A model generated the notes under the pieces. That model saw only the letters and a list, made by a program, of their open reading frames with translations, was not told where the DNA came from and searched no databases. Made by a program: the position numbers and the translations under genes. Shown piece by piece: positions 14,379 through 45,446 of a stretch of 64,000 bases of DNA (the stretch's first letter is position 1; each line of letters begins with the position of its first letter). This DNA comes from a virus. Taxonomy: Duplodnaviria; Heunggongvirae; Uroviricota; Caudoviricetes. The stretch lies in IMG/VR virus record IMGVR_UViG_3300037400_004417; one strand, given 5' to 3'.

Positions 14379-15850
14379 TTAATAGAGCTAAATGGTCAGT
14401 AAGTTATTATCTCATGGTTTTTTATCCATGACTCTGGAAGTTTCCTTCATTTGAAGTTATCTCATTAACTAGTCAATTCTAGTTCAGCTTGGCGTACATT
14501 TTCATCCTATTATTAAATAGGAGTAAGACACTCTTGGTTATATTTTATTCTATAAAATAGTTTCAATAACTACGCTCTACGATGATATTGTTTTTTACGC
14601 AATATTTATCTCGGTATTGACATATCTGCTATTATATTCTTGTATAGCGGCCATAGCCTTTTCGTATTTTCTAAATAAATAAGTTGTAGAATCTGTATAT
14701 AAATAATTTATTAATGCAATAACATCTTTCTTAGATGACCATTTAACGGAGAATATTCCTTTTTCATAACTTGGTTTATTAAATGCGATGTTTAATTTGT
14801 TTGATAAATAATTTCTAATATCGTATATAATATTATCATGTCCACAAAATACAATGTGCCATGAAGGATTACGGTTAGTTAAAATTCGTCTATAAATACT
14901 TCCATCTCCATCGAAATATCCTCTTATAAAATGTTTATACATTTCTTCTTTTAATGTAGGAAAAAAACGATTAGGTTTATAATTAACCATTCCATGTCTT
15001 TCTAAATGTTCTACAAATTCATTATTTGTTACACTAATAGAAGATTCATTTTTTCTTTTGTCTATGACAATTTTTCTAGGTGCTTTTATTAAATCCTTTA
15101 TTTTCTTTATCATATAACTATCAGATTCTTGCAATTCAATTGTGAAAAGTTTACTATTATTTTTATATTTATTTATGAAAATACATCCATCGGCAATAAA
15201 TAACCCTAATAAATAAGCTTTTTCTTCACTATCTATTTTTTCAAAAAAGTTAGTTATTAAACTTCCTCTATTTAAATCTTGTCGATTATAAATGGAAATA
15301 TTATTTCTTTCTAAAACTTTTTTTGCCGTTAATTCACATATATGAAATTGTTTTGATAAGGCCTTTATTGACATAGGTTTTGTTAAATAAAAATTTATTA
15401 TCTTATTGTCGTCCAATATTTTTTTATTCATAATTATTTCACCTCCTTTTATCTAAAATAGCAGATTTAGTTTTTACCGACATTGTCTTATTTAAAAAAT
15501 ACATTACTGTATTCTCAGGCTACCATGTTAACCTGCGAACCGGCTCTACTATGACCTAACTACCCTCGGTTTCCCGATATTTATTAGGGGAGTAGACTAT
15601 CTTTTCATTTCTTGTGAAATGTCTCATCTTTTGAATAATAATATTATTCTACTTCCATATTGGAATAGTCGTTACACTTTGCTTTATTATCAAAAAACAA
15701 AGCACGGTATTTGCAGCTATCCTTTTTTATTAAAAGGACCTTAGCGTCTCTTACGGAGCTGATTCGAGCACAATGCCTTATTTAACTCCTACCGTTAGCC
15801 TTAATTATTTATTAAGACACCCTATATTTATAGGTTAATGAGATTTTCCG
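14379..15850 (-). mobile_element. group I intron, nrdD intron 2 (family D), carrying a LAGLIDADG HEG
   Basis: core 15690-15840 is near-identical to the core of the UvrD-helicase intron at 26790-26940; boundaries approximate. Confidence 0.55.
14595..15431 (-). CDS. double-motif LAGLIDADG homing endonuclease with N-terminal HTH
   Basis: YLLGLFIADGCIF and IRGYFDGDGSIY motifs; 278 aa. Confidence 0.8.
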   Translation of the reverse strand: MNKKILDDNKIINFYLTKPMSIKALSKQFHICELTAKKVLERNNISIYNRQDLNRGSLITNFFEKIDSEEKAYLLGLFIADGCIFINKYKNNSKLFTIELQESDSYMIKKIKDLIKAPRKIVIDKRKNESSISVTNNEFVEHLERHGMVNYKPNRFFPTLKEEMYKHFIRGYFDGDGSIYRRILTNRNPSWHIVFCGHDNIIYDIRNYLSNKLNIAFNKPSYEKGIFSVKWSSKKDVIALINYLYTDSTTYLFRKYEKAMAAIQEYNSRYVNTEINIA

Positions 15851-16440
15851 TCTTTATGCGGCCCCTACACAGTAAGGGAATTAAAATTGAAAACTAGTGC
15901 TTCCATTGCCTGTTTCGTTTCTTCTTCTACGTTTTGACAGGCAATATTATAAATAATTTCTCCATAACTTCGTTTATCAAAGTTATTCCTTGGAATTGTA
16001 AAATATGGTCCGATTCCGATAAGTCCTAAAATTTCGACCATATTTTTCCTGTCTTCCTCTTTATCTTTATATTTTATACGAGATAATATTTCTTCACCAT
16101 CTTCTTTATCTATATATAAACGACAGGAATGTTCTCCATTTGTTATTTTACATAAATTGATAAGCGCTTTTTTTAAATATTTCTGAAAACTTATATGAAC
16201 ATATTTTCCTAAAGCGAAATCAAATCCTACTAAACTTTGACCACCGAAGCAATCATTCTGTGCACTTTGTATTAAAATACATGCTAGAGATGCTGCTGCT
16301 CTGATAGACTTAGGAGGGCGTATAAAACCATGTCCAGTATTAAATCCATGTTTTAATGCCTTGCCTAAGTCAGAGTACAGGCAGTTAATCGTGATAAGAG
16401 AAAAATCCGCATCCGACCAATCGTCTTTTAGCAGACGATT
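15851..16440 (-). CDS. nrdD: NrdD exon 2 (no ATG, so absent from the ORF track)
   Basis: minus-strand translation reads ...DDWSDADFSLITINCLY...CFGGQSLVGFDFALGKY..., a NrdD core motif. Confidence 0.7.
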
Positions 16441-16694
16441 GGTCTGACTATATCATCATCTGTATGTTTGCTATTAAAATACAGATGCTAGGCACTTCAT
16501 ATATAGAATACTACTTGGTTATCACCAATAGTCGATTGACGGTCTATATTGTAAATAATAGTTTCGCACAGGATAACGTCGTAATAACGCTTCCCCTGTT
16601 AGCCTATCTTCTAATCATCATTTTCTATGATTCCTAAACGTAAGACAGACACCCCAGATTTCTGGGTTCACCTAGTTTTTCCATCGTAACTCAC
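16441..16694 (-). ncRNA. group I intron, nrdD intron 1 (family C, ORF-less)
   Basis: S ctgactatatca (16442) and R tagtcgattgac (16535) on plus strand; almost identical to the 5-prime gyrA intron. Confidence 0.55.
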
Positions 16695-17233
16695 GCTACG
16701 AGGCCACAATGCAACTTATGGATATGCTGGATATGTTTCTTATGCATTTCGCGGAATTCTTCAGGAAGAACATAATTATTAAGATACATCTTCGCATTTT
16801 CTGTTCCAAGCTTTAGCATGATTCCCATCGGAGCATCAGTGTTAATATTGGCATTGTCTCTTTTGAGGTCCATCTCCTCTGAATCAGCGAATAATAAATC
16901 ATGATTAAGCTTCATAAGATTTTCGGCAGCGTCTCTCTGCATCCTATGTCTTTCACGATATAAGATATACTTTTTAGCTGTTACGGGGAACATCTTACTT
17001 AGAGTACGTTCTACGATATCCTGGATTTCTTCTACGTTAATAGAATACTGCACTTCTTCATCGATGCTTAAAATTTCTTCTGAAATCTTACTGCTTATGT
17101 ATTCTATATCTTTCTCGTTCATTTCAGGAGACTCATCATATTCCAGATCATTATTAGCTTTAGTAATAGCTATCTTAATTCTTTCTGGATCGAAGTTTAT
17201 AATGTCTCCATTACGTTTTTCAACAGCAATCAA
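16695..17233 (-). CDS. nrdD: NrdD exon 1 (ATP-cone N-terminus)
   Basis: MIAVEKRNGDIINFDPERIKIAI is ATP-cone-like. Confidence 0.7.
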
Positions 17234-17240
17234 TTTAACT

Positions 17241-17519
17241 TCATCCTTTCTTATGATGTTTATCGAATTTTAAATAAATATCGGCAGTTTTTGGATAATC
17301 ATATTCTTTTAACTTTTGAGCGACGATTGTTTTTAAAGTTTTAGTTGTGACTTTATGTACATCCTTTATATAAATATCTATAGCTAATAATATTTCATTC
17401 ATGCCGTTGGTTGATATTTCTTTTGTAGTCTTATTTGCTTTTAACACAGAATGATAAATCTTAGGAGGTTCATAAGGAACTTCCATCCCTGAATTTTTTA
17501 TGATAATTCTTGGAGCCAT
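17241..17519 (-). CDS. hypothetical protein
   Basis: 92-aa ORF. Confidence 0.4.
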   Translation of the reverse strand: MAPRIIIKNSGMEVPYEPPKIYHSVLKANKTTKEISTNGMNEILLAIDIYIKDVHKVTTKTLKTIVAQKLKEYDYPKTADIYLKFDKHHKKG

Positions 17520-18229
17520 TTTAACATCACTACTTTCTCTAAAAAACTAAATCCATTATTCATGAAGATATAATCTAAAATATGTTTAGACCAAGATTCA
17601 AAATAACCATACTTAGCGATTAAATTGTTATAATCCATCCAAGAACCAGTTAGATTATCTTTTTCTTTAACGAATACTTCATTAGCTAACACGATAAATA
17701 CTATACCAGTATGATCATTAGTAGAACTACTTAAATCTCTTACATAACCGAATACATTTAATTTATTATTTACGAAATTTATATTTAATTCTTCATTCAT
17801 TTCACGTTTAGCGCAATTTAAGATAACATTTCCATAATCAGATGGATTAATATGACCACCGCAACCTAAAGAAAAACTACCTTGTAATCTTTCTTCACCA
17901 CTAATTCTCTGAGTAACGTAAAGATGTTTTAACTCTTTATCCGCTATCAAGATATAAGGAATAAGCTGTTGAAAAGCCGAGTTATATTCAGCATCATATC
18001 TCATGATAAATTTACCTAGAGTAGTCCAATCATCGATATTTCTATTAACTTTTTTAGCAGGAGTAAATTTATCTGGAATTATTGTAGTTTCATTGTATGG
18101 AACTACGAATACTTGTTCAGTTGGATACTTAAGTTTTAAGTTTCTTTTAACATCTAAAGTATTCACGATATAAAAAATCACCTCAAAGTTAAGATAAAAA
18201 TAGCAGCTATTTTCCTTGAATCTTTTCAA
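17498..18229 (-). CDS. possible Nudix-family hydrolase
   Basis: GGHINPSDYGNVILNCAKREMNEELNI loosely matches the Nudix box GX5EX7REUXEEXGU. Confidence 0.3.
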   Translation of the reverse strand: MKRFKENSCYFYLNFEVIFYIVNTLDVKRNLKLKYPTEQVFVVPYNETTIIPDKFTPAKKVNRNIDDWTTLGKFIMRYDAEYNSAFQQLIPYILIADKELKHLYVTQRISGEERLQGSFSLGCGGHINPSDYGNVILNCAKREMNEELNINFVNNKLNVFGYVRDLSSSTNDHTGIVFIVLANEVFVKEKDNLTGSWMDYNNLIAKYGYFESWSKHILDYIFMNNGFSFLEKVVMLKWLQELS

Positions 18230-18273
18230 ATTTATAAGAAAATAGCTGCATATCTTTTACTTACGAAAAGAAA

Positions 18274-18549
18274 TTACTTCGCAACAGAATCTTTAAAATA
18301 CTTGCCTGCCTTAAATGCAGGAACCTTTGTCGCTGGAATTTCTACACGTTCCTTCTTCTGAATATTGTAACCAGTACGAGCTGCACGGTTACGTACTTCA
18401 AAAGTACCGAAGCCTGTAATCTGTACGTTATCGCCATTAGCGAGAGCATTGATAATTTCATCAAAAACAATGGTTACATAGTTCTGTGCCTTCGTCTTAG
18501 GAATTTCTGCTTTCTTTGCTACTGCTGCTACTAAATCTGCCTTTGTCAT
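18274..18549 (-). CDS. hup: HU/IHF-family DNA-binding protein
   Basis: 91 aa; GFGTFEVRNRAARTGYN and VPAFKAGK are classic HU arm motifs. Confidence 0.85.
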   Translation of the reverse strand: MTKADLVAAVAKKAEIPKTKAQNYVTIVFDEIINALANGDNVQITGFGTFEVRNRAARTGYNIQKKERVEIPATKVPAFKAGKYFKDSVAK

Positions 18550-18573
18550 GTTTTGTTTTCTCCTTTTTAAGTG

Positions 18574-18915
18574 TTAAATTTTTCTTTTAATGTAATTATT
18601 TTTCTCTAAGCTTATGCAACTTAGATGGCACCAACGACATTCCATACCAGATGAGTTCTTTATGCCATATATTTGCTTTACTTTTTCACAAGCAGCATAA
18701 TGATTTGTTTTAGGAATAAAGATATCTGACTTATCTTCTGGAGGATTATAGTATGCGTTAATGCATTTTATTATTTTTTTATTGCTAAGAAACATAGTCC
18801 TATTATTTAACTGCCTAACCGTTATATTAGGGTGTGTCCTTTCTAATACCTGTTTAAACTCTTCAGGTTCCATGTTTCCAATAAACCTTTTAAAATAAAA
18901 GTCAAAGAATTTCAT
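18574..18915 (-). CDS. hypothetical protein
   Basis: 113-aa ORF. Confidence 0.4.
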   Translation of the reverse strand: MKFFDFYFKRFIGNMEPEEFKQVLERTHPNITVRQLNNRTMFLSNKKIIKCINAYYNPPEDKSDIFIPKTNHYAACEKVKQIYGIKNSSGMECRWCHLSCISLEKNNYIKRKI

Positions 18916-18941
18916 TTTTTTACCACATAAATATTGTCGTA

Positions 18942-19319
18942 TTATTCAGAATAACACGAGGAACAATATGATTTATTATCAGAGAGTTCAAATGTTTCAC
19001 ATGCTTCACAAATAGTCTTTCCACATTTCGCACAAGTCGTTAATTCAACGTTATTAGTTGAACAATTAGGACAAGTACCTTTATTTTTAGCCGTCAAAGT
19101 TTTAATTTTGTCAGAGATTTCATTGATTTTGTTTAATCCTCGATGGCTACTTTGTAGAAATGTATTATTTGTCGTAGAAGCGTGATTCTCTGAATCATTT
19201 GTCTTATTTATATTAAAATAAGGACATTTCTTCACTTCTACTTCGATATTCTTCTGAATAAATAAGTTATTAACTATACAAATCTGTTGATTATTACAAA
19301 TTTCACATGAAATATTCAT
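18942..19319 (-). CDS. zinc-ribbon protein
   Basis: multiple CxxC pairs (CEICNN, CPNCS, CAKCGKTICEAC, CSSC). Confidence 0.4.
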   Translation of the reverse strand: MNISCEICNNQQICIVNNLFIQKNIEVEVKKCPYFNINKTNDSENHASTTNNTFLQSSHRGLNKINEISDKIKTLTAKNKGTCPNCSTNNVELTTCAKCGKTICEACETFELSDNKSYCSSCYSE

Positions 19320-19342
19320 AAAAAATGAGAAACCTTTCTGCT

Positions 19343-19933
19343 TTAGCTAATAGAAAACTTATCTTCTAAAGTTACTTTTTCTATGCCGGGAACAACTTGA
19401 CCATCCAACATAAGCTTGCCGTCCTTAAACTTTCCTGCGGCCTTTAATTTTACTTTGTCAATCTTAGGAGGAGGGGTAGTTAAGAACTGAGAATAATGTG
19501 GATTGCTCTGCAAATACTTTCTCAGAATATCTTCTTCGTAATTAGTTTCTTCACTTTTACGGAAACTCATTTTGCCTTCTGGCAAAGTTAGAGTTTTAGT
19601 TTTAGCATTAATTAACTGTTCTTTAGCATAAGCTTTTAGCCTGGAAGCCAACCATTCCATAGTCCATGAACGCTTCCTTGCTTCTTCTTCTTTCCAGGCT
19701 TCAACTTTTGCTTTATGTTTTTCTATAATAGATTTAGCCGTTTCATTTACTTCATTTAATTCGGCTTGTAATTTATTATACTGCTTAATTAAATAATTAG
19801 CCTGTTCTCTATCCTTGATCGTAAAATTATCTTCGGTAGAGATATTTAACTCTTCAATTTCCTGTTCATCGATAAAATCTAAGAGTTCTTCGGTTAAAGA
19901 CTTTGTTTCTTGAATTTCATTGGTATCTTCCAT
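19343..19933 (-). CDS. Gam-like host-nuclease inhibitor / DNA-end-binding protein
   Basis: N-terminal coiled coil; AWKEE..SWTMEWL and C-terminal GIEKVTLEDKFSIS resemble Mu Gam (GW..ANRDELTNGGK..., GIEDFSIIP). Confidence 0.45.
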   Translation of the reverse strand: MEDTNEIQETKSLTEELLDFIDEQEIEELNISTEDNFTIKDREQANYLIKQYNKLQAELNEVNETAKSIIEKHKAKVEAWKEEEARKRSWTMEWLASRLKAYAKEQLINAKTKTLTLPEGKMSFRKSEETNYEEDILRKYLQSNPHYSQFLTTPPPKIDKVKLKAAGKFKDGKLMLDGQVVPGIEKVTLEDKFSIS

Positions 19934-20036
19934 AAAAAATCAGTCATCCTTTCTTTAACGATTTATATTATATATTCTTTAACGAGTTATGTCAAGTACT
20001 TTAACAAAAAATATCAAAAAAATATTCTAGTTAAAG

Positions 20037-20285
20037 TTAATCTGAAGTTAGGATATTAATTAAGTTTTCCATTTCAGCATCAGTCAAGGTAATTCCTTTA
20101 CTCATTTTAGTATGATCTTCTGACCACTCTCGGATATCATATTTAGGAGAAGCACCATTCCAAGATATTCGATTTAGTTCTTTACTCCAACCTTTTTCAG
20201 ACGTAGATATAACACCACATTTTTCTACGATATTAAATTTGATTTCTTTTGTAGCCATTATAAAAACACCTCGTCTAATTTGCAA
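20037..20285 (-). CDS. PC4/YdbC-like ssDNA-binding protein
   Basis: EKGWSKELNRISWNGASPKYDIREWSEDHTKMSKGITL matches the bacterial PC4-like (YdbC) signature. Confidence 0.55.
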   Translation of the reverse strand: MQIRRGVFIMATKEIKFNIVEKCGVISTSEKGWSKELNRISWNGASPKYDIREWSEDHTKMSKGITLTDAEMENLINILTSD

Positions 20286-20304
20286 GATTAATAGAAGAAG
20301 ACCG

Positions 20305-21373: not shown

Positions 21374-21816
21374 CATTAATGTTATTTAATTTCATTTATT
21401 TTATAAAAAAATAAAATTAAATTTCCTATATTTAGGACTCTGATTTTCATCAGAAGTTCAGACTATATCTTCATCCTTATAAAAAAGGAGTCGAGCATTT
21501 CGATTTAAAGGACTTTCACCTACCTGATACCAGGCCCTACTCCTATTGGCATTTCAGCCCACAATGGGATAGTCGTTGAACCTTCTCCTTACTCCACAAG
21601 TGAAGGAGCTTGGCTGCTGATCGTCGATTTTTATTTGAATTTTAGGACTATATTTTTTTATAGCTTTTATTTCACCATGATTCATTTTATTGTTTCTTTC
21701 AGTCTTTCGACAACATTCGCACTTATTATTTCTAATTATGCTGTAGTACAATAAACTTTACGATGTCCCAGCAATTAACTCGATTTTTTCCTACACATTA
21801 CTGTATAGGGAGACCC
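21374..21816 (-). ncRNA. group I intron (family A, ORF-less) in the SNF2 helicase gene
   Basis: S cagactatatctt (21460), R gatagtcgttgaacc (21573), gctgctgat (21612) on plus strand; proposed junction DEIN|IQYIKSD with exon end U and intron end G. Confidence 0.55.
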
Positions 21817-24611: not shown

Positions 24612-25760
24612 TTAAGTTTTTACTACGTATTGGGAATTTATCTCCTTGATAAATCGTGAAGGTTTGTTAGGGAACACGCCTCTTTTAGTAAGTACAGTGG
24701 TTGGATAGGTTATAAAAAGATACTTTTCGGCTCTCGTCATTCCGACATAGAATAACCTTCTTTCCTCTGAAATATCTCCAGCCTGTATTGCTTTTATATG
24801 AGGAACAACTTCTTCATTTGCTCCAACTATAATTACAGCTGGAAATTCCAAACCTTTAGATGCATGCATAGTCATTAGATTAACATAATCATCTTCATCT
24901 TGTTCTTCTGTCATCTGGGTATTCATTATAACATTATTAGAAAAGTCAGCTAAATCTACATAATTACATGCTACTTCTCTTAACTCTACTAAATTAGCTA
25001 ACTTTTCAGGAACTAATTCTTCTTCTGCTGTTTCACTAATATAGTCCTCATAATGAACCATATTAATGATCTCTTTAACTATGTCTTCAGGACTATTTGC
25101 TAAGCAATATTCGGTTAAAGTTTCAATTACAGCGATAAATCTGTTCAAATTTTCTCTTGTTGTCTTTGTTACCTTCACATTTTTACAAGCGGATAATAAT
25201 CCCCCGTTGTCTATTGTACCATGTTCATCAGCATATGTAAAGACCTTTTCTAAAGTTTTATCTCCAATTCCTCTCTTTGGAACGTTGATAATACGTCTTA
25301 ATGCTTCTGAATCATTAGGGTTTAATAGAAATCTGACATATGCCATAATATCTTTGATTTCTTGTCTCGCATAGAAAGCTAAACCGCCGGTGATTTTATA
25401 AGGAATTCTATTCTTTAACATAGCCTTTTCTATACGCCTAGACAAAAATTGCATTCTGTAAAGTATCGCCATATCTTTATATGCCATACCTTTTTTCTTT
25501 AAAGCTTTAACAATACGTACTACATGGTTTGCTTCATCAGTACTATTAGTCAACGCAGATAACATAATGCTGTTTCCTACTTCATTTTCAGTAAAAACAG
25601 TTTTCTTAATAGGTTCGTCATTGTTCTTAATCATACTGCGAGAAGCATTTACGATAGTTTTTGTGGATCTATAATTTTGTTCTAACATAAATTGTTTAAA
25701 ATTATATGTCTTCATAAAATCATATACGGATCCCATATTTGCGCCTCTGAAACTATATAT
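24612..25760 (-). CDS. UvrD/PcrA-like helicase, exon 3 (motifs IV-VI)
   Basis: IYSFRGA...LEQNYRSTKTI...VGMTRA; in-frame extension upstream of the Met to 25760. Confidence 0.75.
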   Translation of the reverse strand: MYSFRGANMGSVYDFMKTYNFKQFMLEQNYRSTKTIVNASRSMIKNNDEPIKKTVFTENEVGNSIMLSALTNSTDEANHVVRIVKALKKKGMAYKDMAILYRMQFLSRRIEKAMLKNRIPYKITGGLAFYARQEIKDIMAYVRFLLNPNDSEALRRIINVPKRGIGDKTLEKVFTYADEHGTIDNGGLLSACKNVKVTKTTRENLNRFIAVIETLTEYCLANSPEDIVKEIINMVHYEDYISETAEEELVPEKLANLVELREVACNYVDLADFSNNVIMNTQMTEEQDEDDYVNLMTMHASKGLEFPAVIIVGANEEVVPHIKAIQAGDISEERRLFYVGMTRAEKYLFITYPTTVLTKRGVFPNKPSRFIKEINSQYVVKT

Positions 25761-27000
25761 CTTTTTTATTTATTATATATACATTGATAAAAATACATGA
25801 ACATCATAGGTAATACATTTAATAATAAAAAACATCTCAAAGGAGTGTATACCTATGACAGAAAAACAGATATGTAAACAACAACAAATGATTGCGGCAG
25901 CAAATGAGTTTATCAAAGGAGCTAAACCGCAAGAAGTAATGAAAAAATACAATATATGTTATGCTTCCATTTGGAACACAATCAAAAGATATAATCTTCC
26001 TTACAAAAAGACATGGGGAAGAGAAATATTTTTTGATATTGATTTCTTTGAAAAAATTGATACAGAAGCAAAAGCTTATTGGTTAGGATTTATTTTTGCA
26101 GATGGTTCTGTAGTCAAAACAGACAAAAACTTACAAGAATATAATCGAGTATGTGTATCAATATCAGCAAAAGACATTGCCCACCTTCAAAAACTAGAAT
26201 CAATTCTTAATTTTTCTAAACCTAATAGAATCAAAATTTATAAAAAAACTCCAAATGCTTCATTTAAAAGTGAATATGACACTTGTTATCTTCATCTAAA
26301 TTCGATAAAATTATGTTCTGATATCATAAATCATGGTTGCGTTCCACAGAAAACATATGATACTACTCATAATCCACAAAATATCCCAGATCACTTAATA
26401 TGTCATTTTATAAGAGGATATTTCGATGGAGATGGAAGTATTTCTGGAAAACTAAAATCCCCAATGTTCAGTATTACGACATCAAAAAACCATAATGAAT
26501 GGATACAGTCTTATTTAATGCGTTTTTGCAATCTAAACAAGACTAAACTAACTTTTTGTCGCAATGCTTATCAATTAGATTATGGAGGAATAAATCAAAT
26601 TGTTCGTATTTTTCATTATTTATATGATGATGCTACTATTTATCTTGAACGTAAATATAATAAATTTTACTCTTATGTTTCTAATAGAGAACAGACTATC
26701 TCTTCATCCTTATCTGAAAAAGATAAGGAGCTCGGCACTTCGGCATAGGATTTTCACCACAGCCTACGAGAATCACTTCTCTAGTCGTTACACTCTTATA
26801 ATATTGTATATTATACTAGCACGGTATTTCCAGCTATCCTTTGTTTTGCAAAGGACCTTAGGTTCTCTTACGGAGCGTATTCAATATATTAACTCCTACC
26901 GTTAGCCCTCATTTTTAATAAATAAAACAAGGACACCCTATATTATATAGGTTCACCGAGGATTAATTATTCATTGCTGAATAAAAGAGCAATATAGTTT
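25761..27000 (-). mobile_element. group I intron (family D) in the UvrD-like helicase, with an antisense LAGLIDADG HEG
   Basis: exon 2 ends ...DADQS (AGT, U) at 27001; intron ends in G at 25761; exon 3 resumes IYSFRGA; core 26790-26940 is homologous to nrdD intron 2. Confidence 0.65.
25855..26748 (+). CDS. double-motif LAGLIDADG homing endonuclease, on the strand opposite to its host intron
   Basis: YWLGFIFADGSV and FIRGYFDGDGSIS; own RBS aaaggagtg. Confidence 0.8.
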   Translation: MTEKQICKQQQMIAAANEFIKGAKPQEVMKKYNICYASIWNTIKRYNLPYKKTWGREIFFDIDFFEKIDTEAKAYWLGFIFADGSVVKTDKNLQEYNRVCVSISAKDIAHLQKLESILNFSKPNRIKIYKKTPNASFKSEYDTCYLHLNSIKLCSDIINHGCVPQKTYDTTHNPQNIPDHLICHFIRGYFDGDGSISGKLKSPMFSITTSKNHNEWIQSYLMRFCNLNKTKLTFCRNAYQLDYGGINQIVRIFHYLYDDATIYLERKYNKFYSYVSNREQTISSSLSEKDKELGTSA

Positions 27001-27645: not shown

Positions 27646-27977
27646 CCAATTGTTATTAACCTACGGCTTTTTATCCGTAGCTCTGGAGGTTATCCTCATT
27701 TTCATCGGTTAGTCTTTTCTAACCCAGTGTAGCGTACCTTTTGCATATAGCTTCTATATTTAATATAGAAGTAAAACTGTAAATATGGACCGGCCTCTTG
27801 GGAACATTATATCTTTTCAGTTCCTACGCGTTGCTCCTCATCTTACTTTGCAAGATGTTCGGTTCTGATTAGGTTTATAACCCTTCCAGCTTAATTCCGG
27901 CCTAATAATTCAGAAACTTCATACAGTCTTTGTTTCTGAACGGCAATATTTAATGTAATTCATTACATTACACAATT
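27646..27977 (-). ncRNA. group I intron (family B, ORF-less) inside the Walker A codons of the UvrD-like helicase
   Basis: exon 1 ends GPGSG (GGT) and exon 2 starts AAA ACT (KT); intron ends G at 27646; family-B core motifs at 27670-27700, 27775-27830, 27860-27900. Confidence 0.65.
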
Positions 27978-29432: not shown

Positions 29433-29724
29433 CTAGATATTTTTATCCTATAGTTTTTTATCTATAGCTCTGGAGGTCGCCCTCATTTTCATCGGATGAT
29501 CAATACATCCCAGCATAGCATATCTTTTTATGTAGTTCTATATTGATTATAGAAATAGTACTGTAAACATAGAACGGTCTCTTGGTGAGATTATATCTTT
29601 TCACTCACTATGCGTTGCCCCTGACTTATCTTAAATAAGCCTTCGGTTCTGATTAGGTTTATAACCCTCCCAGCTTAATACCATTCTAATCATCGAGATT
29701 CTTCATACAGTCATTGAATCTCGA
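29433..29724 (-). ncRNA. group I intron (family B, ORF-less) in the AAA ATPase gene
   Basis: family-B motifs tctatagctctggaggtcgccctcattttcatcgg (29460), ggtctcttggtgagattatatcttttca (29575), cttcggttctgattaggtttataaccc (29640); boundaries approximate. Confidence 0.55.
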
Positions 29725-36660: not shown

Positions 36661-36691
36661 AATAGGTCTTCCTTATATTTTGATTATGTGA

Positions 36692-37747: not shown

Positions 37748-38113
37748 CACAATATTTATATTAGGGAATAGACTATATCTTTACCATATCTTATAGTTAA
37801 TATAAGACTTAGGCACTCTGCACTTCCATTTAAGGGATTCTCACCCATCCTGTAAACGCAGGACCGTACTCTTGTAGCTGATTTTCACAGCCCCTCGCGG
37901 GAGATAGTCGTTGAACCCTTTTTATGTATCCATAAAATTAGGAAGCTGATTGTCTTATGATAATGCATATATCACTTAGATTTTCCAGCATTTCACAGAG
38001 TTTCTTACCTTATTATTTCTAACAAGGATGGCTTCTATTTAAATAATAAAATTTTTTTCTTTTTTTAATAAATTGTTTGTTCTAAATTTTTATGCAATAT
38101 TTAAATAGATTTT
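37748..38113 (-). ncRNA. group I intron (family A, ORF-less) inside the recA Walker A codons
   Basis: exon 1 ends IEDSG (GGT, U), intron ends G at 37748, exon 2 starts AAA ACA (KT); S aatagactatatcttt (37775), R gagatagtcgttgaaccc (37900). Confidence 0.7.
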
Positions 38114-38374: not shown

Positions 38375-38380
38375 AAATAT

Positions 38381-38587: not shown

Positions 38588-38604
38588 GATAATCAGGACC
38601 TTTA

Positions 38605-38952: not shown

Positions 38953-38961
38953 ATTATGATT

Positions 38962-41106
38962 CTATACCTCCGCTTTTTCTTCTTCAATCTCGTCTTCCTG
39001 CATAGGAGCAGAACTTACACTAGCAATAATATCATCTTTTTGAAGATTAACTATTTTAGAACCAGTTGCTGTTCTACTCATTACTTTTATACTAGATGCT
39101 GGAATTCTTATAGTCATACCTAACTGTGTGACAACAAATATAGTTTTGTCGTCTTCAGCAATCAGTATAATATTAATGGCGCCAGTATTTTTAGTAGGCT
39201 TATAGTAAGAGACACCTTTGCTTCCTCGATTAGTAATTCTTATATCTTCAGCATTCATTCTCTTAGCTATACCTTTGTCAGTAACGATAAGAAGCTGATC
39301 TTTGTTATTAGCTTTTAATACAGATACTACATAATCAGAATCATCTTTAAACTTAATTCCTGTTACTCCAGCTGCCGCACGCCCCATTAATCTTATATTA
39401 GATACAGGAGTTCTCACGGCAAAACCATTATTTGTAGCCAATAATACGATATCATTATCTTCTACTAAAGTACAGCCAATAATACTATCATCATCTTTAA
39501 TATTTATGACTTTAGCTCCAGATTTTGTAGAAGGCAAATCTTTAACAGAAAGTCTCTTACATAAACCTTTCTTTGAAGCGAAGAATAAAGTAACATTATC
39601 ATCATTTTCCTTAATCGGAACAATATTAATGATTTTTTCACTTTCTTCTAAAGAAACATAGTTTTGAACATATTTGCCAACAGATTTCTTTGATACAATA
39701 GGTATCTGATATGCCGGCAAAATATAAGCCTTACCTATATTAGTAATAAAGACCAAATTATCATGATTAGTTAAAGATATAATATTCTCAACAAAATCAT
39801 CATCTACTAACTTAGAAGATACTCCCTTGCCATTTTTCTTCTGAGCATTATATTCATTAGTTTTAACAGCTTTAATGATCCCTTTATGAGTAATCATTAT
39901 CATGATATCTTCTTTGGCAATATAATCTTTATCTGTTAAGGAATTTGTAGTCTCGCAAGATATCTCAGTAAGTCGTTCTTCCTTTTCGAATTTTACGGCA
40001 ACTTCATTTAATCTCAACTTTGTTTCATTAAGAAGCTCGAAATCATCATTAAGAATATTCGTTAAGTGTTGTATTTCTTTTGTAAGATTATTTATTTCTT
40101 CATTATATTCATCTATACTAATTTTCTTTAATGTTCTAATTTGTCTAGATAATATCGCAGAAGTTTGTTCTTCGTCTAAAGAATATAAGTCGTTAAATTT
40201 AGACACTATTTCTTCATCGCTATTTGCTTCTTTTATAATGTCTATAACTTCATTAATATTTGGAGTGATTATAGCAAAACCTTCCAAAATATGTAATCTC
40301 TTCTGTTTTCGCGGCAAATCATATTTTATTTTATTCCTTATAATTTCAATAGAATGCTCTAAGAATATTTCTAATAATTCTTTTAAAGTTAAATGTTCTC
40401 TAATTTTACCTTTAACCAAAGCTTGATGATTCATAGAAACAGTTGTCGCCATTTCTGTATCTTTTAATAATTTATTAATGGTAAGTTCAGTATTCACATT
40501 TTTCTTTAAATCTATAACTACCCTTATTCCATCTCGATCAGATTCGTCTCTTACTTCTTTTATGTCTGGAATAATATTATCTTTTCTAAGTTCATCTATT
40601 TTAGATACTAATCTAGATTTTATAACGCCAAAAGGAATTTCTGTAATAATAATACTTTCATTTCCCTTTTTGTCTATTTCTGTATGATACTTAGAACGAA
40701 TCTTTACAGATCCTTTTCCTTCTTTATATCCTTGATGAATCTCTTTTAATGATGTTATAATACCACCAGTAGGAAAATCTGGAGCTTTTATTATATCGAT
40801 TAATTCATCGTCTGTATATTCTTCTCCCTCTAATGTCTTATCTATTATATGATTAACAGCTTTGTAAACATCTTTAGCCATATGAGGAACAAAAGACGTC
40901 CCCATACCTACTGCTATACCACTTACGTAAGAACATAAGAGATTAGGGAATAATCCACTAAGGACAACAGTTTCTTTTTCTGATTCATCATAATTAGGTA
41001 CGAAATCTACAGTACCTTTATCTAAATCCGTCAGCATTAAATCGCCATATACTGATAATCTTCCTTCCGTATATCGCATCGCCGCCGGAGGGTCACCATC
41101 TAAATT
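38962..41106 (-). CDS. gyrA: DNA gyrase/topoisomerase IV subunit A, exon 3
   Basis: NLDGDPPAAMRYTEGRLS, VDFVPNYDESE, GIAVGMGTSF, C-terminal beta-pinwheel repeats (GRAAAGVTGIKF). Confidence 0.8.
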   Translation of the reverse strand, partial: NLDGDPPAAMRYTEGRLSVYGDLMLTDLDKGTVDFVPNYDESEKETVVLSGLFPNLLCSYVSGIAVGMGTSFVPHMAKDVYKAVNHIIDKTLEGEEYTDDELIDIIKAPDFPTGGIITSLKEIHQGYKEGKGSVKIRSKYHTEIDKKGNESIIITEIPFGVIKSRLVSKIDELRKDNIIPDIKEVRDESDRDGIRVVIDLKKNVNTELTINKLLKDTEMATTVSMNHQALVKGKIREHLTLKELLEIFLEHSIEIIRNKIKYDLPRKQKRLHILEGFAIITPNINEVIDIIKEANSDEEIVSKFNDLYSLDEEQTSAILSRQIRTLKKISIDEYNEEINNLTKEIQHLTNILNDDFELLNETKLRLNEVAVKFEKEERLTEISCETTNSLTDKDYIAKEDIMIMITHKGIIKAVKTNEYNAQKKNGKGVSSKLVDDDFVENIISLTNHDNLVFITNIGKAYILPAYQIPIVSKKSVGKYVQNYVSLEESEKIINIVPIKENDDNVTLFFASKKGLCKRLSVKDLPSTKSGAKVINIKDDDSIIGCTLVEDNDIVLLATNNGFAVRTPVSNIRLMGRAAAGVTGIKFKDDSDYVVSVLKANNKDQLLIVTDKGIAKRMNAEDIRITNRGSKGVSYYKPTKNTGAINIILIAEDDKTIFVVTQLGMTIRIPASSIKVMSRTATGSKIVNLQKDDIIASVSSAPMQEDEIEEEKAEV

Positions 41107-42237
41107 CATTTTGTTAATCGTTAAGTTTTTTATCTTAACTCTATATCTTGCGATACAGATCAGCATATATTTTTACGTATTTTTATCATTACTTCAAACG
41201 TAATCCGGTCTCTTGGTAGAATTATATCTTTTCATCTACTATGCGTTGCCCCTGAATATACTTAGTATATCCTTCGGTTCGCGTTTTCCTTGTTCAGGAT
41301 TTTCACGTTTAATACCAGATTAATAATCTAATTTCTTCATGAAGTTTTTGAAACTAGACGGCAAAAATTTAAATATCTATTGTATTTTCTGTCTAAATAA
41401 ATAGTAGCATCAGAATACATAAAATTTAATGCTTTTAAGATTTCTTGTTTTGCTGATATTCTGTATATGTATACATTTTTTCTAAATTTTACTTTGTAAG
41501 TAGTTTTTACACCAGCTAAACGTTCAAAGATATCTTTTATGTATTCCAATATATCTTTCCCCATGCCAAAACCTATTTCTCTATAATTATAGCCATAAGT
41601 TATCCATCCATCTCCATCAAAAATACCCCTTATATAATGATGAATAAGGTGTTCTGGAATTTGTTTTGCTGGCCTTTCGTTTAAAGTTTTAACACTGGAA
41701 AATCCTAAATTTATCAGGGCTTGATGTAAATGTTTATTAGTAATAGTTAATGTACTAACTAAAGCGGTATCACTATATCCACCACTTTTTCTGATTTCAA
41801 TCGGATGTTCAGATTCAATCGATTTTTTAAACTTTTCAACATGATTATGATCTGAATGCATAAGACTTAATCTAATTCCATTGCTCGATTTAAAAATACA
41901 ACCATCTGCGGTTAATAAACCAAGCCAATATGCTTTTTCTTCAGTGTCTATTACATCAAAGTAATTTTCATTTACATCATATATTCCCCGGATTTCATAT
42001 CTATTGTATTCTTTTAAATATTTGGCTAAAGTATCTCTTGATACTCCTAAATCTTTAGCACATTGGGTAATGCTTAGATCTTTATGTTGAGAAAAGTAAT
42101 TTACTGCATCTTCCCAAAATTTTTCGAGCATTTTTTGTTTGTTTAACATTTAAGAACACTTCTTTCTGTGGAAATAGTATACTTAAATTATTACCAAACA
42201 GCTTTAATGCTTTATACATAGATGTTTAAATTTGTTT
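41107..42237 (-). mobile_element. group I intron, gyrA intron 2 (family B-like core), carrying a LAGLIDADG HEG
   Basis: micro-exon ends ...QGNHG (GGT, U) at 42238; intron ends G at 41107; family-B motifs ccggtctcttggtagaattatatcttttca (41205) and ccttcggttcgcg (41270). Confidence 0.6.
41337..42149 (-). CDS. double-motif LAGLIDADG homing endonuclease with N-terminal HTH
   Basis: YWLGLLTADGCIF and YIRGIFDGDGWI. Confidence 0.8.
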   Translation of the reverse strand: MLNKQKMLEKFWEDAVNYFSQHKDLSITQCAKDLGVSRDTLAKYLKEYNRYEIRGIYDVNENYFDVIDTEEKAYWLGLLTADGCIFKSSNGIRLSLMHSDHNHVEKFKKSIESEHPIEIRKSGGYSDTALVSTLTITNKHLHQALINLGFSSVKTLNERPAKQIPEHLIHHYIRGIFDGDGWITYGYNYREIGFGMGKDILEYIKDIFERLAGVKTTYKVKFRKNVYIYRISAKQEILKALNFMYSDATIYLDRKYNRYLNFCRLVSKTS

Positions 42238-42333
42238 ACCATGGTTTCCCTGCATATCTACTAATGGATATCTTTGTTTAAAATCCTGAGACATATTTAC
42301 CATTGCTTCATATACTGATTGATCTCCATGAGG
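42238..42333 (-). CDS. gyrA: gyrA micro-exon (32 codons: [32 protein letters not shown])
   Basis: supplies the conserved PHGDSAVYD..RY.LVDGQGNFG block missing between the flanking exons; absent from the ORF track. Confidence 0.65.
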
Positions 42334-42635
42334 CAATTATATTACAAATATAATCTGACTATATCATCATCTTTGTTTTATACCAAAGAGCTAGGCGCTT
42401 CATGACAAGGAAATTCACCTTATTCATTACACTCTTATTTGAGTTAGTCGATTGACCTACTATTATATATAATAGATTGGCACAGGATAAAGCTAATTCA
42501 ACTGTCCCCTGTTAGCACTATCATTATATGTCATTTCCTACATACACAATTAATCGTTGATAGCACACCTTACATAATTATAAGTTCACCTAGTTTTCAT
42601 TATGATTCTCATCATAATGCCACCCGATTTCACAA
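42334..42635 (-). ncRNA. group I intron, gyrA intron 1 (family C, ORF-less)
   Basis: exon 1 ends ...GRYH (CAT, U) at 42636; intron ends G at 42334; S ctgactatatca (42357), R tagtcgattgac (42440); about 85% similar to nrdD intron 1. Confidence 0.65.
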
Positions 42636-42866
42636 ATGGTATCGCCCGAGGCATTCACCTACTGTTCTTGCACTCTTTTTATATGAAGTATTAGCATGTA
42701 GTCCTAATCCATTTAAAGACTGAAGTATTCTTCTCTGCACTGGTTTTAAACCATCTTCTGCAGCTGGAATGGCTCTTCCTTCAATTACGTCTTTTGCATA
42801 CAATAAATAATTCGTATACATATGTTCCGCAAAAGAAACTTCTTCTATATTTTTAACTTCGTTCAT
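42636..42866 (-). CDS. gyrA: DNA gyrase subunit A, exon 1
   Basis: [11 protein letters not shown]...[15 protein letters not shown]. Confidence 0.75.
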
Positions 42867-42884
42867 GGTCGTATTTCCTCTCTA

Positions 42885-43556
42885 TTATTCTGAAATATTA
42901 TTTTCTGCGTTAATAACTTCAATAGAGTTAGCAGAAATTTCCTGTACAGAATATTCTAAAATATGGCCATTTTCTTCTTTACTGTAAGTTCTTGTCTGGA
43001 AACGTCCAATAGCTTTAATTTCGTCTCCAATTTTTAGATTCTTGGCTTCTTTTGCGACATTCCCCCAGCAAATTACGGGAATATAAAAACTCTTATTTCT
43101 CTTTAAATTGCACGCTACTGTTAAGTCTGTAATATATCTGCCAGTCTTAGATGTTTTACGGTATCTTGGTTCTTTAGAAATATAGCCTGTTAATTCAATA
43201 ATGTTTTGAGTTTTTCTTTCTGGTACTCTTTCATCGGAAAGAATATTATATTCTCTAACATATCCATAAACAAATCTATAACTACGCTCATTGAAAGTTC
43301 TATATTTAACTCTAACATCTCCTTTGACTTCAATAAAATCTCCTACTTTAATAGGAGTGGCCTTGATTAAGTCATTAGAAATTGTTAAAGGTAAAACATC
43401 AGTAGTACTGCTTAAACGATCAACTTCAAGCTTAATATTTGTATAACTATTTTCGTTGTTTTTACTAATATTATCTTCAATTTCTAAAACAACACCGTAA
43501 AGATACATCTTATTTTCATTAATATTTACTTGACTCATAAAAAACGTACACTCCAA
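42885..43556 (-). CDS. SSB-like protein with two OB-fold regions
   Basis: C-terminal half NIIELTGYISKEPRYRKTSKTGRYITDLTVACN...VICWGNVAKEAKNLKIGDEIKAIGRFQTRTY is a canonical SSB OB fold. Confidence 0.45.
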   Translation of the reverse strand: MECTFFMSQVNINENKMYLYGVVLEIEDNISKNNENSYTNIKLEVDRLSSTTDVLPLTISNDLIKATPIKVGDFIEVKGDVRVKYRTFNERSYRFVYGYVREYNILSDERVPERKTQNIIELTGYISKEPRYRKTSKTGRYITDLTVACNLKRNKSFYIPVICWGNVAKEAKNLKIGDEIKAIGRFQTRTYSKEENGHILEYSVQEISANSIEVINAENNISE

Positions 43557-43632
43557 TCTGTATTAAATTATATTATATATACAGATTGTATATCCATAAC
43601 TTAATACAGATATACAATCTGTTTGTCGTATA

Positions 43633-43797
43633 TCATAAATTTTGAAGAATATATTCTCTTCTTGCTTCTACATTATTACTCATACAAATTTCTAAAGCAT
43701 TTGCGGCGCTTTCACAATCATCTATCGTGATTCTCTTTAATCTGGCAATTTCAGGATTCATGGTTGTCTCCCAAAGCTGTTCAGGATTCATTTCTCC
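43633..43797 (-). CDS. gyrB: DNA gyrase subunit B, exon 4 (C-terminus)
   Basis: minus-strand translation (L)GEMNPEQLWETTMNPEIARLKRITIDD...; no ATG, so absent from the ORF track. Confidence 0.7.
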   Translation of the reverse strand, partial: GEMNPEQLWETTMNPEIARLKRITIDDCESAANALEICMSNNVEARREYILQNL

Positions 43798-44058
43798 TAC
43801 ATGTTTTTTCTTATGTTACCATAAGCACTGACTATTTCTTCGTTGAATATTTCAACGTTATCTTTTTCCCAATGCGTATCAATAGCATCAGTACTTCCCG
43901 ACAAAGGGAATAGTCGATACAGGATTAAGTATTTTTTACTTTTTCCCACGAGACATTCCTAAAAATATTTAGGACGGCCCTCGTTAGCTATATTAATGGT
44001 AATTATTAATATAACCCCGCTGATAAACGGAAAAGATAATAAGGGCTCGGATTCTCTA
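43798..44058 (-). ncRNA. group I intron, gyrB intron 3 (short, ORF-less)
   Basis: exon 3 ends KG + T (U), intron ends G at 43798; together these restore RYKGLGEMNPEQLW; R/S-like ggaatagtcgatac and cactgactatttc. Confidence 0.55.
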
Positions 44059-44275
44059 ACCCTTTATAGCGACTTACGCTATAACCATTCGTATCAAAAG
44101 CGTCCAATTCTTCTTTTGTATATAAATAATGTACTTCTTCTTTGTTTTTACTTATCTTCCTTGATACTTTAAATAGTGGTGGACAAGCCGCATATAAATA
44201 TCCAGCTTCTATAATAGGTCTCATATAATGATAAAAGAACGACATATGTAAGCAAGCAATATGCCCGCCATCAAC
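44059..44275 (-). CDS. gyrB: DNA gyrase subunit B, exon 3
   Basis: VDGGHIACLHMSFFYHYMRPIIEAGYLYAACPPLFKV...RYKG. Confidence 0.75.
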
Positions 44276-45446
44276 CGATTATACCCTTGCTTTTGCAATA
44301 TTTAAAAATTCATCATATATTTCTTTTTTTCTATCTAAATAAATGGTTGCATCTAAATACATAATGTTTAAAATTTTATATAATTGAATATTTCCTCCAA
44401 TATGTAATTCAAATGCATTATTATGAGGTACGATTTTTAAATTGTTTTTATTGAAATAACTAGATATACCTTTTAACATATCTTTAGTTCCAGTAAAACC
44501 CAAACAATATTTTTTTTGGTTATTGTAATTGTAATATGATAAAGATCCATCACCATCAAAATATCCTCGAATAAAATGATGTATTAAATCTTTCGGAACA
44601 ATATTGTCTGTTGGAAAATTTAATAAATATGTTTTGTGTTCGGCAACACCTTTATCTTTTAAATCATTTACAGTTTTGCTACTTGTTAACAGTATTTTTG
44701 CGAACATATTTTCTTTTGCAAATCCACTACCTTTATATATTTTAATAGGATTTGTAGCTTCAATATCTTTTTTAAATTTATATAAATGATTTATCTCTGA
44801 ATGTTTTAAAGTTATACCTATTTTTTGATTTGAATTTTCTCTTTTTGATTCAATAAAACCATCAGCATATAAAAATCCTAACCAATAAGCTTTATGCTCT
44901 GTATTTATTGTTTCAAAAAAAGATTCATTATGAAAATATTTTCTAGAATTTATAGAATTATTTCTAATTGTGATATTATGTTCTTTTAAAATATTCGATA
45001 GAGTTTTTCTATCATGATTGTATTTCTTTTCTAAAGAACGTAAAGATATGTTATTTTCATAATCAACAATTAAATTTTGCAATTCATTTATTGATAGATT
45101 TAATTTTTTTGCCATAAATACCATTCCTTTGTTATATATTTATATATTTATTACTACAAAGTAAATGATATTTATACAAATGGCGTAAATATATTTAATG
45201 TATAGGGTCTAGATCATATCTTCACCATATTTTTATATTGTCATAAAAACTTAGGTTGCTCCACTTCCTTCTTAAAATATATTATTTAGAAGTAAGTCCG
45301 AATGGACTGATCGTTGAACCTTCTTTATTTATTATAAAGATTGGCTGCGAATTGTCCATTTAATTTAAATAATAAAAAATGGATATCCTCGCAATTCAGA
45401 GCTCTTTAAATTATATCTTTCGATATAATACGACTGTTAAAATTCA
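44276..45446 (-). mobile_element. group I intron, gyrB intron 2 (family A), with a LAGLIDADG HEG whose stop lies 3 nt from the 3-prime splice site
   Basis: exon 2 ends ...MNDAD (GAT, U) at 45447; intron ends G at 44276; S ctagatcatatcttca (45215), R gactgatcgttgaacc (45307), ggctgcgaattgtcc (45343). Confidence 0.7.
44279..45124 (-). CDS. double-motif LAGLIDADG homing endonuclease with N-terminal HTH
   Basis: YWLGFLYADGFI and FIRGYFDGDGSLS. Confidence 0.8.
   Translation of the reverse strand: MVFMAKKLNLSINELQNLIVDYENNISLRSLEKKYNHDRKTLSNILKEHNITIRNNSINSRKYFHNESFFETINTEHKAYWLGFLYADGFIESKRENSNQKIGITLKHSEINHLYKFKKDIEATNPIKIYKGSGFAKENMFAKILLTSSKTVNDLKDKGVAEHKTYLLNFPTDNIVPKDLIHHFIRGYFDGDGSLSYYNYNNQKKYCLGFTGTKDMLKGISSYFNKNNLKIVPHNNAFELHIGGNIQLYKILNIMYLDATIYLDRKKEIYDEFLNIAKARV

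Follow-up and report, generated by a model that had tools for sequence, protein, structure and literature searches.

Related HTH-LAGLIDADG endonuclease genes in predicted group I introns of one phage suggest separable endonuclease and ribozyme modules

The 64,000-nucleotide (nt) stretch of phage DNA analyzed here (IMG/VR record IMGVR_UViG_3300037400_004417, Caudoviricetes; hereafter, the window) is AT-rich, with about 31% G+C, and carries almost all of its genes on the minus strand. The phage-like genes include nrdD, SNF2 and UvrD-like helicases, recA-like, gyrA, gyrB, SSB and clpX/clpP-like genes. Four of them are interrupted by introns that contain a homing endonuclease gene (HEG), and we refer to the HEGs of nrdD, the UvrD-like helicase gene, gyrA and gyrB as H1, H2, H3 and H4, respectively. 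The corresponding open reading frames (ORFs) lie at 14595..15431 (H1, minus strand, 278 amino acids (aa)), 25855..26748 (H2, plus strand, 297 aa), 41337..42149 (H3, minus strand, 270 aa) and 44279..45124 (H4, minus strand, 281 aa). An earlier note on this DNA had proposed that the four are paralogs with an N-terminal helix-turn-helix (HTH) and LAGLIDADG motifs, that their introns belong to three families, and that the HEGs move independently of the intron ribozymes; the four ORFs themselves are borne out.

The products of the four genes are related, as the note had supposed. All six pairwise blastp comparisons of H1–H4 gave 27–38% identity (E 2e-22 to 8e-45), and no fifth HEG copy was found by tblastn in the 64 kb. 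The two motifs of the earlier note are invariant across H1–H4 and read KAYWLGxxxADG and (F/Y)IRG(Y/I)FDGDG. The acidic residue closing each LAGLIDADG motif, within (L/F)xxADG and FDGDG, is kept in H1–H4 and in 38 further family members. The Pfam profile LAGLIDADG_3 (cut-off 22.5 bits) matches H1–H4 with 37.1, 36.4, 39.6 and 24.5 bits, and is matched by all 38 aligned relatives as well; H1 also matches LAGLIDADG_1 with 28 bits. PHROG 4645, annotated as 'endonuclease', matches the four proteins at E 1e-47 to 1e-57 (2e-47 for H1, 5e-50 for H3 and 1.5e-57 for H4).

An AlphaFold2 model of H4 alone, computed with a 38-sequence alignment, reached a pLDDT of 89.8 and a pTM of 0.77. The N-terminus of the model is a three-helix bundle (helices 12–23, 28–35 and 39–48), followed by a linker of ~25 residues and two alpha-beta-beta-alpha-beta-beta-alpha halves. 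A Foldseek search of the PDB with this model had as top hits bI3 maturase, I-AniI, I-Tsp061I and members of the I-OnuI group (E 1e-10 to 1e-8, probability 1.00). Among the 38 relatives, the HTH profiles matched are HTH_58 (9 members), HTH_7 (8), HTH_38 (6), HTH_23 (5) and HTH_28 (5), while in H1–H4 themselves HTH matches fall under the Pfam cut-offs or are absent; the putative N-terminal HTH of the earlier note finds support in the H4 model and in the profiles of the relatives, and little in the four proteins themselves. H4 has more than 2,496 homologues, and 397 were counted in IMG/VR viral contigs, which makes this a large family. H1–H4 are best explained as one phage HEG family whose modeled product joins an N-terminal HTH to a single-chain, double-LAGLIDADG nuclease with predicted cleavage activity, and the matches indicate that PHROG 4645, little characterized so far, is an HTH-LAGLIDADG family. 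Members that appear to be free-standing, on the strand opposite all their neighbors and between intact genes, lie in the IMG/VR contigs L036, L045, L056, L058 and L075; in L036 there are two HEG copies (2599-3441 and 3902-4726) in opposite orientations, ~460 nt apart.

The window has no close nucleotide relative: megablast of 20 kb of it against 50,697 phage records found none, only blocks of ~50 nt. Exons were therefore mapped through distant homologues (GyrB from the PDB and the NrdD of an Eggerthella phage) and a scan of all frames. In the four host introns and in three neighboring ones (hel_i1, nrdD_i2 and gyrA_i1), each 5' exon has U as its last base, each intron closes with G, and joining the exons keeps the reading frame. 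The joins restore NSLTVHSRAGSQVPFSS, LDADQSIYSFRGAN, GRYHPHGD...GNHGNLDGDPPAAMRYTE, which yields a single GyrA of 823 aa, and IILMNDADVDGGHIA. The HEG-bearing introns are inserted in conserved motifs of their genes, namely ..SQV^PFSS in nrdD, motif III of the helicase (DQS^IYSF), GNHG^N in gyrA and DAD^VDG in gyrB (a caret marks the insertion or splice site throughout). In nrdD and gyrA, one intron per HEG-bearing exon gap was ruled out by mini-exons that encode HSRAGSQV and PHGD...GNHG, respectively.

The introns were grouped within the window by blastn and MAFFT into four families, named here X, Y, Z and W. Family X comprises hel_i1, the introns of the AAA ATPase and clpX-like genes, the H3 intron, and the 3' half of the H1 intron. 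The core of the H2 intron belongs to family Y together with nrdD_i2, and the core of the H4 intron to family W together with sequences in the SNF2 and recA-like genes and at 2780-3230; family Z consists of nrdD_i1 and gyrA_i1. ORF-less members of X, Y and W co-occur in the window. As Rfam is blind to family X and to the gyrB core of contig L004, we relied on covariation and on family hidden Markov models (HMMs). The family-X alignment (A4) contains 12 sequences from the window and five other contigs and has a consensus of P2, P3, P4, P5, P6, P7.1 and P8, in which the hairpin between P7 and P3' resembles P7.1 of subgroup IA. With the P7 pseudoknot, it comprises 44 pairs with 97.9% of cells paired; compensatory changes occur in 30 of the 44, and P7 is 100% paired. 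None of 500 shuffles was as good, slid controls paired 34–44%, and the family-X HMM matches no other intron family of the window. Family Y has 83 invariant columns over seven sequences (nrdD_i2, the H2 core, L089, L091, L092, L004 and L006). Judged by these features, the four HEG hosts are group I introns of minus-strand genes and are predicted to be self-splicing. P1 pairings were taken from the sequence by reading.

In nrdD, H1 is hosted by intron 3 (14397..15530, minus strand, 1134 nt), which was recognized by its splice junctions and by the family-X HMM on its 3' half. Splicing would rejoin NSLT-VHSRAGSQV-PFSSINFG. By eye, the intron forms P1 (CAGGU^UAAC..GCCUG), P2 (AAUACA/UGUAUU) and P3 (UAAGACA/UGUCUUA). 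H1, whose ATG follows the Shine-Dalgarno sequence AAAGGAGGTG at an 8-nt spacer, occupies the P4-P6 domain, between P3/P4-5' and P4'/P7. The 3' half of the intron, with P7, P7.1, P3', P8, P7' and P9, belongs to family X (HMM E 1e-8), and the same HMM matches its counterparts in L009, L013 and L017; P3 and P7.1 covary with L009 and L017. The 5' 99 nt have no detectable similarity to family X by local alignment or by the family-X HMM; local alignment of the short 5' part of the H3 intron with family X likewise gave no significant match.

Upstream of this intron lies a mini-exon of only 24 nt (15531..15554, minus strand; tcatagtagagccggttcgcaggt) that encodes the conserved HSRAGSQV; the counterpart in the NrdD of the Eggerthella phage is NLNTMHSRAGAQVPFSS. 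It is preceded by nrdD_i2, the second nrdD intron (15555..15868, minus strand, 314 nt, no ORF), which was assigned to family Y by its similarity to the helicase intron core (76% identity over 146 nt). A block at its 3' end (15547-15608) comprises J8/7, P7', P9, the terminal G and the first bases of the mini-exon, and is 94–98% identical over ~47–60 nt to sequences in about 200 phages of Staphylococcus, Listeria, Enterococcus, Bacillus and Lactobacillus, many of them Herelleviridae. Some of these matches are annotated within terminase large-subunit genes, and the block recurs in L031, L038, L043, L054, L078 and L087 of IMG/VR. The block could be a module that introns share widely, and recombination might take place at it. 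Contig L017 (~3570-3960) has nrdD twin introns like those of the window: its second group I-like intron carries the motif GAAGATATAGTC and ends a few codons before the HEG intron, leaving a mini-exon of roughly 30 nt.

The helicase gene presents a different arrangement, in which H2 is antisense to both its intron and its host gene. Intron 2 of the UvrD-like helicase gene (25761..27000, minus strand, 1240 nt, family Y) consists of the whole core, P1 through P9, at 27000-~26671, followed by the antisense HEG, a 94-nt tail and the terminal G. The Rfam model RF00028 aligns over positions 1-253 at 27010-26671 (27.9 bits, E 1e-4). Splicing would rejoin LDADQS-IYSFRGAN through a canonical 3' junction (..AAAAAAG^ATATATAGT). 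H2 has its own Shine-Dalgarno sequence, AAAGGAG, with an 8-nt spacer to the ATG, and its last ~26 codons, which encode a poorly conserved C-terminal tail, overlap P7'/P9 of the intron on the opposite strand. Homologues of H2 occupy the same antisense site between helicase halves in L089/L090 (66% identity), L091 (55%) and L092/L093 (54%), so that the antisense layout is kept in four further contigs with three HEG sequence types; the placement of H2 is no accident.

Both P1 and P10 of this intron covary among three phages. The window pairs AGAGU^AA with UUGCUCU in P1, including a U.G pair, and CUAUAU with AUAUAG in P10; L089 has the same P1 and a P10 of CCAUAU/AUAUGG, and L091 has GAGU^AG/CUGCUC and GCCAUA/UAUGGC. 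This covariation supports the use of a 3' splice site that is 0.9–1.2 kb away from the core. A scan around H2 for promoters and terminators was uninformative, with 14 sigma-70-like sites against 9.6 expected and no terminators. The first intron of the gene, hel_i1 (27646..27977, minus strand, 332 nt, no ORF), is the reference member of family X, and its splicing would rejoin AGPGSG-KTATL. On the minus strand, the Rfam family n00280 ('Clostridioides difficile sRNA included into helicase gene') matches 24700-24797, in helicase exon 3, and 26639-26723, in the overlap of intron and HEG, scoring 37 and 20 bits where the gathering threshold is 65; both matches probably reflect coding sequence or chance.

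H3 lies in gyrA intron 2 (41107..42237, minus strand, 1131 nt), a family-X group I intron (HMM E 7.5e-59). The ORF begins 88 nt past the 5' splice site CAUGGU^AAAC. At its 3' end, the final ~12 codons overlap with the internal guide UUGCCG and with all of P2, and H3 is therefore placed in the P1 loop; a position in the P2 loop is ruled out. The layout is repeated in L004 and L035. A frame scan located a mini-exon of 96 nt, or 32 codons, at 42238..42333 (minus strand; PHGD...GNHG), which runs on from exon 1 in the intron-free gyrA of L006. Its other flank is gyrA_i1 (42334..42635, minus strand, 302 nt, no ORF), which was delimited by its junctions and placed in family Z (78% identity to nrdD_i1 over 83 nt). 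Introns are present or absent at fixed sites among related genomes, as expected of mobile introns: gyrA has two in the window and none in L006 and L095–L097, gyrB_i1 is absent from L004, and L004 has a family-X intron with a HEG at a third gyrA site, HPHG^D. Mini-exons of 24 and 96 nt escape notice readily, so gene callers and first-pass readers can be expected to mis-annotate such regions.

The gyrB site is the most informative for the relationship between HEG and ribozyme. Intron 2 of gyrB (44276..45446, minus strand, 1171 nt) has its family-W core at 45446-~45200, where RF00028 aligns over positions 1-253 at 45456-45199 (38 bits, E 2.5e-6), and its core resembles the 2780-3230 sequence and the intron of the recA-like gene. 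H4 lies downstream of the whole core, with its stop codon 3 nt from the 3' splice site (..TAATCG^GTTGAT), and splicing would rejoin IILMNDAD-VDGGHIACLHMSFFY. Translation of H4 probably starts at the fourth codon (45115), which gives 278 aa and agrees with the identical database protein P0001. Orthologous HEGs (H4 orthologues are 55–62% identical) are found in the window, L004 and L006 at an identical gyrB site, GAT^TG..AACAGTCGT.. and ..GGGTnTAATCG^GT. From J8/7-P7' through the HEG into exon 3, the window is 50–88% identical to L004 and L006. By contrast, at ~45424-45255 it is just 18–44% identical to them, with many gaps, where L004 and L006 share 74–98%.

The cores of L004 and L006 instead align with family Y over its 83 invariant columns. 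With the family HMMs (nhmmer), Y cores were recognized at the gyrB site in L004, L006 and L095 (E 1e-44 to 1e-64), and W cores in the window, L096 and L097, with E 3e-9 to 3e-11 for the two independent loci under a W HMM that includes the window's own sequence. The L004 core has no Rfam group I match at E<1. As judged from these alignments, the core from P2 to P7' differs between phages at the gyrB site, while homology persists in the P1/guide end, in the 3' tail and in the HEG. A single HEG lineage is thus found at one site with a W or a Y core, which implies that HEG and ribozyme were combined independently. The family-Y cores of L004 (3584-3935) and L006 (2179-2515) are 88–98% identical and their adjoining HEGs and exons 45–78%, which suggests either strong constraint on the core or a recent core transfer between these phages.

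A neighbor-joining tree of 16 HEGs of known context has three strong clades, each of which corresponds to one target site: nrdD (H1 with L009, L013 and L017; bootstrap 98%), helicase (H2 with L089, L091 and L092; 100%) and gyrB (H4 with L004 and L006; 100%). The match of clades to target sites indicates that the four genes of the window are old, site-bound lineages and no recent duplicates. A tree of 28 HEGs leaves the four lineages unordered, with deep nodes at 8–55% bootstrap. Layouts vary within ribozyme families: family Y has a sense HEG in gyrB of L004, an antisense HEG in the helicase gene and none in nrdD_i2, and family X has HEGs in two different loops, or none. These patterns support the view that HEG and ribozyme are separable modules, joined independently. 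The best account is that members of this HEG family have entered three or more ribozyme families and lie in them at four positions, namely in the P1 loop, within the P4-P6 domain, and in the 3' tail, there in either sense or antisense orientation.

The independent movement proposed in the earlier note accordingly holds as a conclusion, mostly on evidence that the note did not draw on; part of its reasoning was wrong. It had assigned the hosts of H1, H2, H3 and H4 to families D, D (inverted), B-like and A. The count of three families survives by accident, the actual set being X, X, Y and W, and how the labels A, B and D correspond to X, Y and W can only be guessed. The H1 and H3 hosts are relatives of one another and not of the 'D' intron; neighboring introns in nrdD and gyrA had been merged, which put H1 in the wrong family, and nrdD_i2 was probably the intron taken for its host. 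Nor is the helicase intron inverted, as only its HEG is. Paralogy stands in the sense of homology, although the genes are deep, site-tied lineages (bootstrap 98–100%) and not recent copies made in this genome. HEG and intron phylogenies, whose congruence had been named as the point that would count against independence, agree within a site, where HEG and layout are usually inherited together, and disagree across the two cores of the gyrB clade, the two loops of family X, and the sense, antisense or missing HEGs of family Y. At the HEG flanks, where duplicated target sequence was to be sought, direct repeats reach only 7–8 nt, equal to shuffled controls.

The homology and fold of the proteins, the intron boundaries, the RNA covariation, the layouts and the incongruence of HEG and core are observations, and we propose the following scheme to account for them. 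Each HEG occupies a peripheral element, outside the catalytic part, of a group I intron inserted in a conserved motif of a gene for DNA metabolism. During mixed infection, the enzyme would cut an allele of its own host gene that lacks the intron, at the insertion site or close to it, and double-strand-break repair would copy HEG and intron into the cut allele (homing). Self-splicing would restore the mRNA of the host gene, and H2 would be transcribed from the opposite strand, using its own ribosome-binding site. The HEG lineage would stay with its target site and the carrier ribozyme would be exchangeable; cleavage, homing, splicing and antisense transcription are here predicted from sequence. 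We give this explanation as a whole, with deep site-bound HEG lineages, exchangeable ribozyme carriers and presumed homing, a probability of about 0.8.

Several points weigh against it. Family W rests on short similarities of 59–132 nt, and family X can be demonstrated for the 3' half of the H1 intron alone. None of the four host introns reaches the RF00028 gathering score of 50 bits (38 bits for the H4 intron, 27.9 for that of H2), and family X has no RF00028 match at E<10; the score is passed by two ORF-less neighboring introns alone, with 85 and 62 bits. This model responds poorly to cores as divergent and AT-rich as these, and to those that an ORF splits. All trees are neighbor-joining trees, and their deep HEG nodes have bootstrap values of 8–60%, so that it cannot be told how many HEG-ribozyme unions took place or in which order. 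The HEGs that lie in the P1 loop of family-X introns also cluster weakly, implying that HEG and intron move as a unit as well.

This last observation would also be expected if one intron with its HEG had spread to four sites and co-diverged strictly, the 'families' being mere divergence and the HEGs never moving on their own. The joint conservation of HEG lineage and intron layout at the nrdD and helicase sites fits this account, as does the subgroup IA appearance of all the ribozymes. We nevertheless consider it very unlikely, as it is contradicted by the core swap at the gyrB site, where a clade with 100% bootstrap spans two non-aligning cores (18–44% identity) and HEG and tail align. The ORF is moreover found in four places and in both orientations relative to the ribozyme, and there are ORF-less members in every family. 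A different account dispenses with splicing and regards H1–H4 as free-standing endonuclease genes between permanently split gene fragments, comparable to T4 genes 39/60 and split nrd genes. The sub-gathering Rfam scores of the host introns and the free-standing family members on either strand in the five contigs named above are compatible with it. However, the mini-exons, with 8 and 32 codons, cannot be proteins in their own right, start codons are missing at the junctions of the downstream fragments, and each junction has a U at -1, a terminal G and an invariant motif restored in frame. Together with the strong covariation of P2-P8, the P3/P7 pseudoknot and P1/P10, this leaves split genes as the most improbable of the explanations considered.

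It is also conceivable, though unlikely, that the proteins are mainly maturases or decaying, immobile remnants, and that the pattern reflects old invasions only. Among the structural matches, bI3, a maturase, and I-AniI, a bifunctional enzyme, are indeed the best; the 3' splice sites of the H2 and H4 introns, 0.9–1.2 kb from the core, might benefit from a protein cofactor; and the lineages are old, with 29–32% identity between HEGs that share the nrdD site. H1–H4 and their 38 relatives have, however, retained both catalytic acidic residues, the ORFs are full-length in all lineages examined, and close relatives differ in whether they have the introns, which points to introns still being gained and lost.

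Beyond the exchange of carriers between site-bound HEG lineages, a more elaborate reading is possible, which we put forward tentatively and hold to be somewhat less likely than not to apply. The introns may be assembled from three exchangeable cassettes. One would consist of the target-specific ends, with the P1 guide at one side and the 3' tail at the other, the second would be the endonuclease gene, and the third the catalytic core P2-P7'. The core swap may have arisen by recombination at short blocks that are common to many introns of this intron-dense genome. The antisense HEG may be a long-lived arrangement coupled to splicing, in that convergent transcription and antisense RNA could link HEG expression to splicing of the host helicase mRNA. 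We found no description of cassette exchange or of the antisense-HEG feature for phage introns in the literature searched.

Several known systems resemble these elements in part. The organelle LAGLIDADG homing endonucleases and maturases (I-AniI, bI3, I-OnuI, I-SmaMI and I-LtrI) and the archaeal I-Tsp061I likewise have two motifs per chain, each ending in an acidic residue, contain the alpha-beta-beta-alpha-beta-beta-alpha fold twice, and are encoded within group I introns. H1–H4 are only 10–20% identical to them, have an additional predicted N-terminal three-helix HTH and a linker of ~25 residues, and are hosted by phage protein-coding genes, with one copy antisense. The td, nrdB and nrdD/sunY introns of T4 are likewise of subgroup IA type and interrupt phage nucleotide- and DNA-metabolism genes, nrdD among them, and their ORFs lie, as here, in a peripheral element or, as in sunY, between the core and a remote 3' splice site. 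Mobility of the T4 introns depends on the endonuclease (I-TevI, I-TevII, I-TevIII) and not on the intron core. The T4 enzymes are of the GIY-YIG or HNH type, whereas those described here are LAGLIDADG proteins, and T4 has three introns, against at least 15 in the window.

The usual endonucleases of phage introns are of the GIY-YIG, HNH, PD-(D/E)xK and EDxHD types, and LAGLIDADG is not among them (PMC3984707). According to the consensus, endonucleases invaded ORF-less introns on many independent occasions (PMC3984707), and free-standing HEGs that target intron insertion sites are described, as cited there (Bonocora and Shub 2009, in PMC3984707). The invasion model fits the present case, with one HEG family that is free-standing and in several ribozyme families, ORF-less relatives in the same genome, and HEGs at the extreme 5' or 3' periphery of the introns. 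It differs in that the reverse exchange is seen here, in which HEG, target-specific ends and 3' tail are kept and the catalytic core is replaced. WhiA likewise combines a LAGLIDADG fold with an HTH (PMC3984707), but it is a domesticated transcription factor with a C-terminal HTH and an inactive nuclease, whereas H1–H4 have their predicted HTH at the N-terminus and have retained the catalytic residues.

Antisense HEGs of the His-Cys box type are documented, next to sense ones, in group I introns of nuclear rDNA, where the HEG is likewise opposite to ribozyme and host gene and is stably inherited (PMC9548176). Those introns are eukaryotic and their HEGs are expressed via spliceosomal introns and polyadenylation; in the phage, the host is an mRNA gene, the enzyme is a LAGLIDADG protein and the ribosome-binding site is of the bacterial type. 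A 2025 survey of Bastillevirinae reported a single LAGLIDADG HEG, the others being mostly HNH, and a small exon between two introns (PMC11878797). The Bastillevirinae and Herelleviridae introns likewise occur severally in core genes with HEGs in intron loops, and many Herelleviridae share the 3' end of nrdD_i2 at 94–98% identity; the window itself has no close nucleotide relative among the 50,697 phage records.

Separate histories of HEGs and ribozymes are already accepted, and the concept is therefore unchanged by our finding. The novelty lies in the instance, in that one phage has an HTH-LAGLIDADG family in four layouts, an antisense arrangement is conserved in an intron of a phage mRNA, and the catalytic core has been exchanged under one HEG lineage. 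The value of the window lies in a compact natural data set and an unusually clear example of a known principle. With public metagenome sequences, it makes directly testable how composite mobile introns are assembled, where recombination breakpoints fall, and how a 3' splice site ~1 kb from the core is chosen.

The HEG-bearing introns belong to a dense population. At least 15 group I introns occur in ~36 kb on the minus strand (13862-50262): four in nrdD, one in the SNF2 helicase gene, two in the UvrD-like helicase gene, one each in the AAA ATPase and recA-like genes, two in gyrA, three in gyrB and one in the clpX-like gene. Those outside the HEG-bearing genes are a family-W intron of the SNF2 helicase gene (~21376-21800), an ORF-less family-X intron of the AAA ATPase gene (~29440-29722), a family-W intron of the recA-like gene (~37750-38090) and an ORF-less family-X intron of the clpX-like gene (~49880-50262). 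At 2780-3230, a further intron-like sequence is similar to the core of family W. Metagenomic contigs that share the window's gene order exist, and the source is best explained as a phage that is rich in introns, resembles Herelleviridae in its gene content and lacks a close relative among sequenced phages.

An IS607-like element is present within the phage at 55226-57228 on the minus strand. Its ORF at 56524-57228 has a MerR-type HTH and a serine resolvase domain by Pfam, and a second ORF of 405 aa (55347-56564) is possibly TnpB-like. Directly 3' of the latter, the RAGATH-18 RNA motif is found at 55226-55287 with 66 bits, which exceeds its gathering score.

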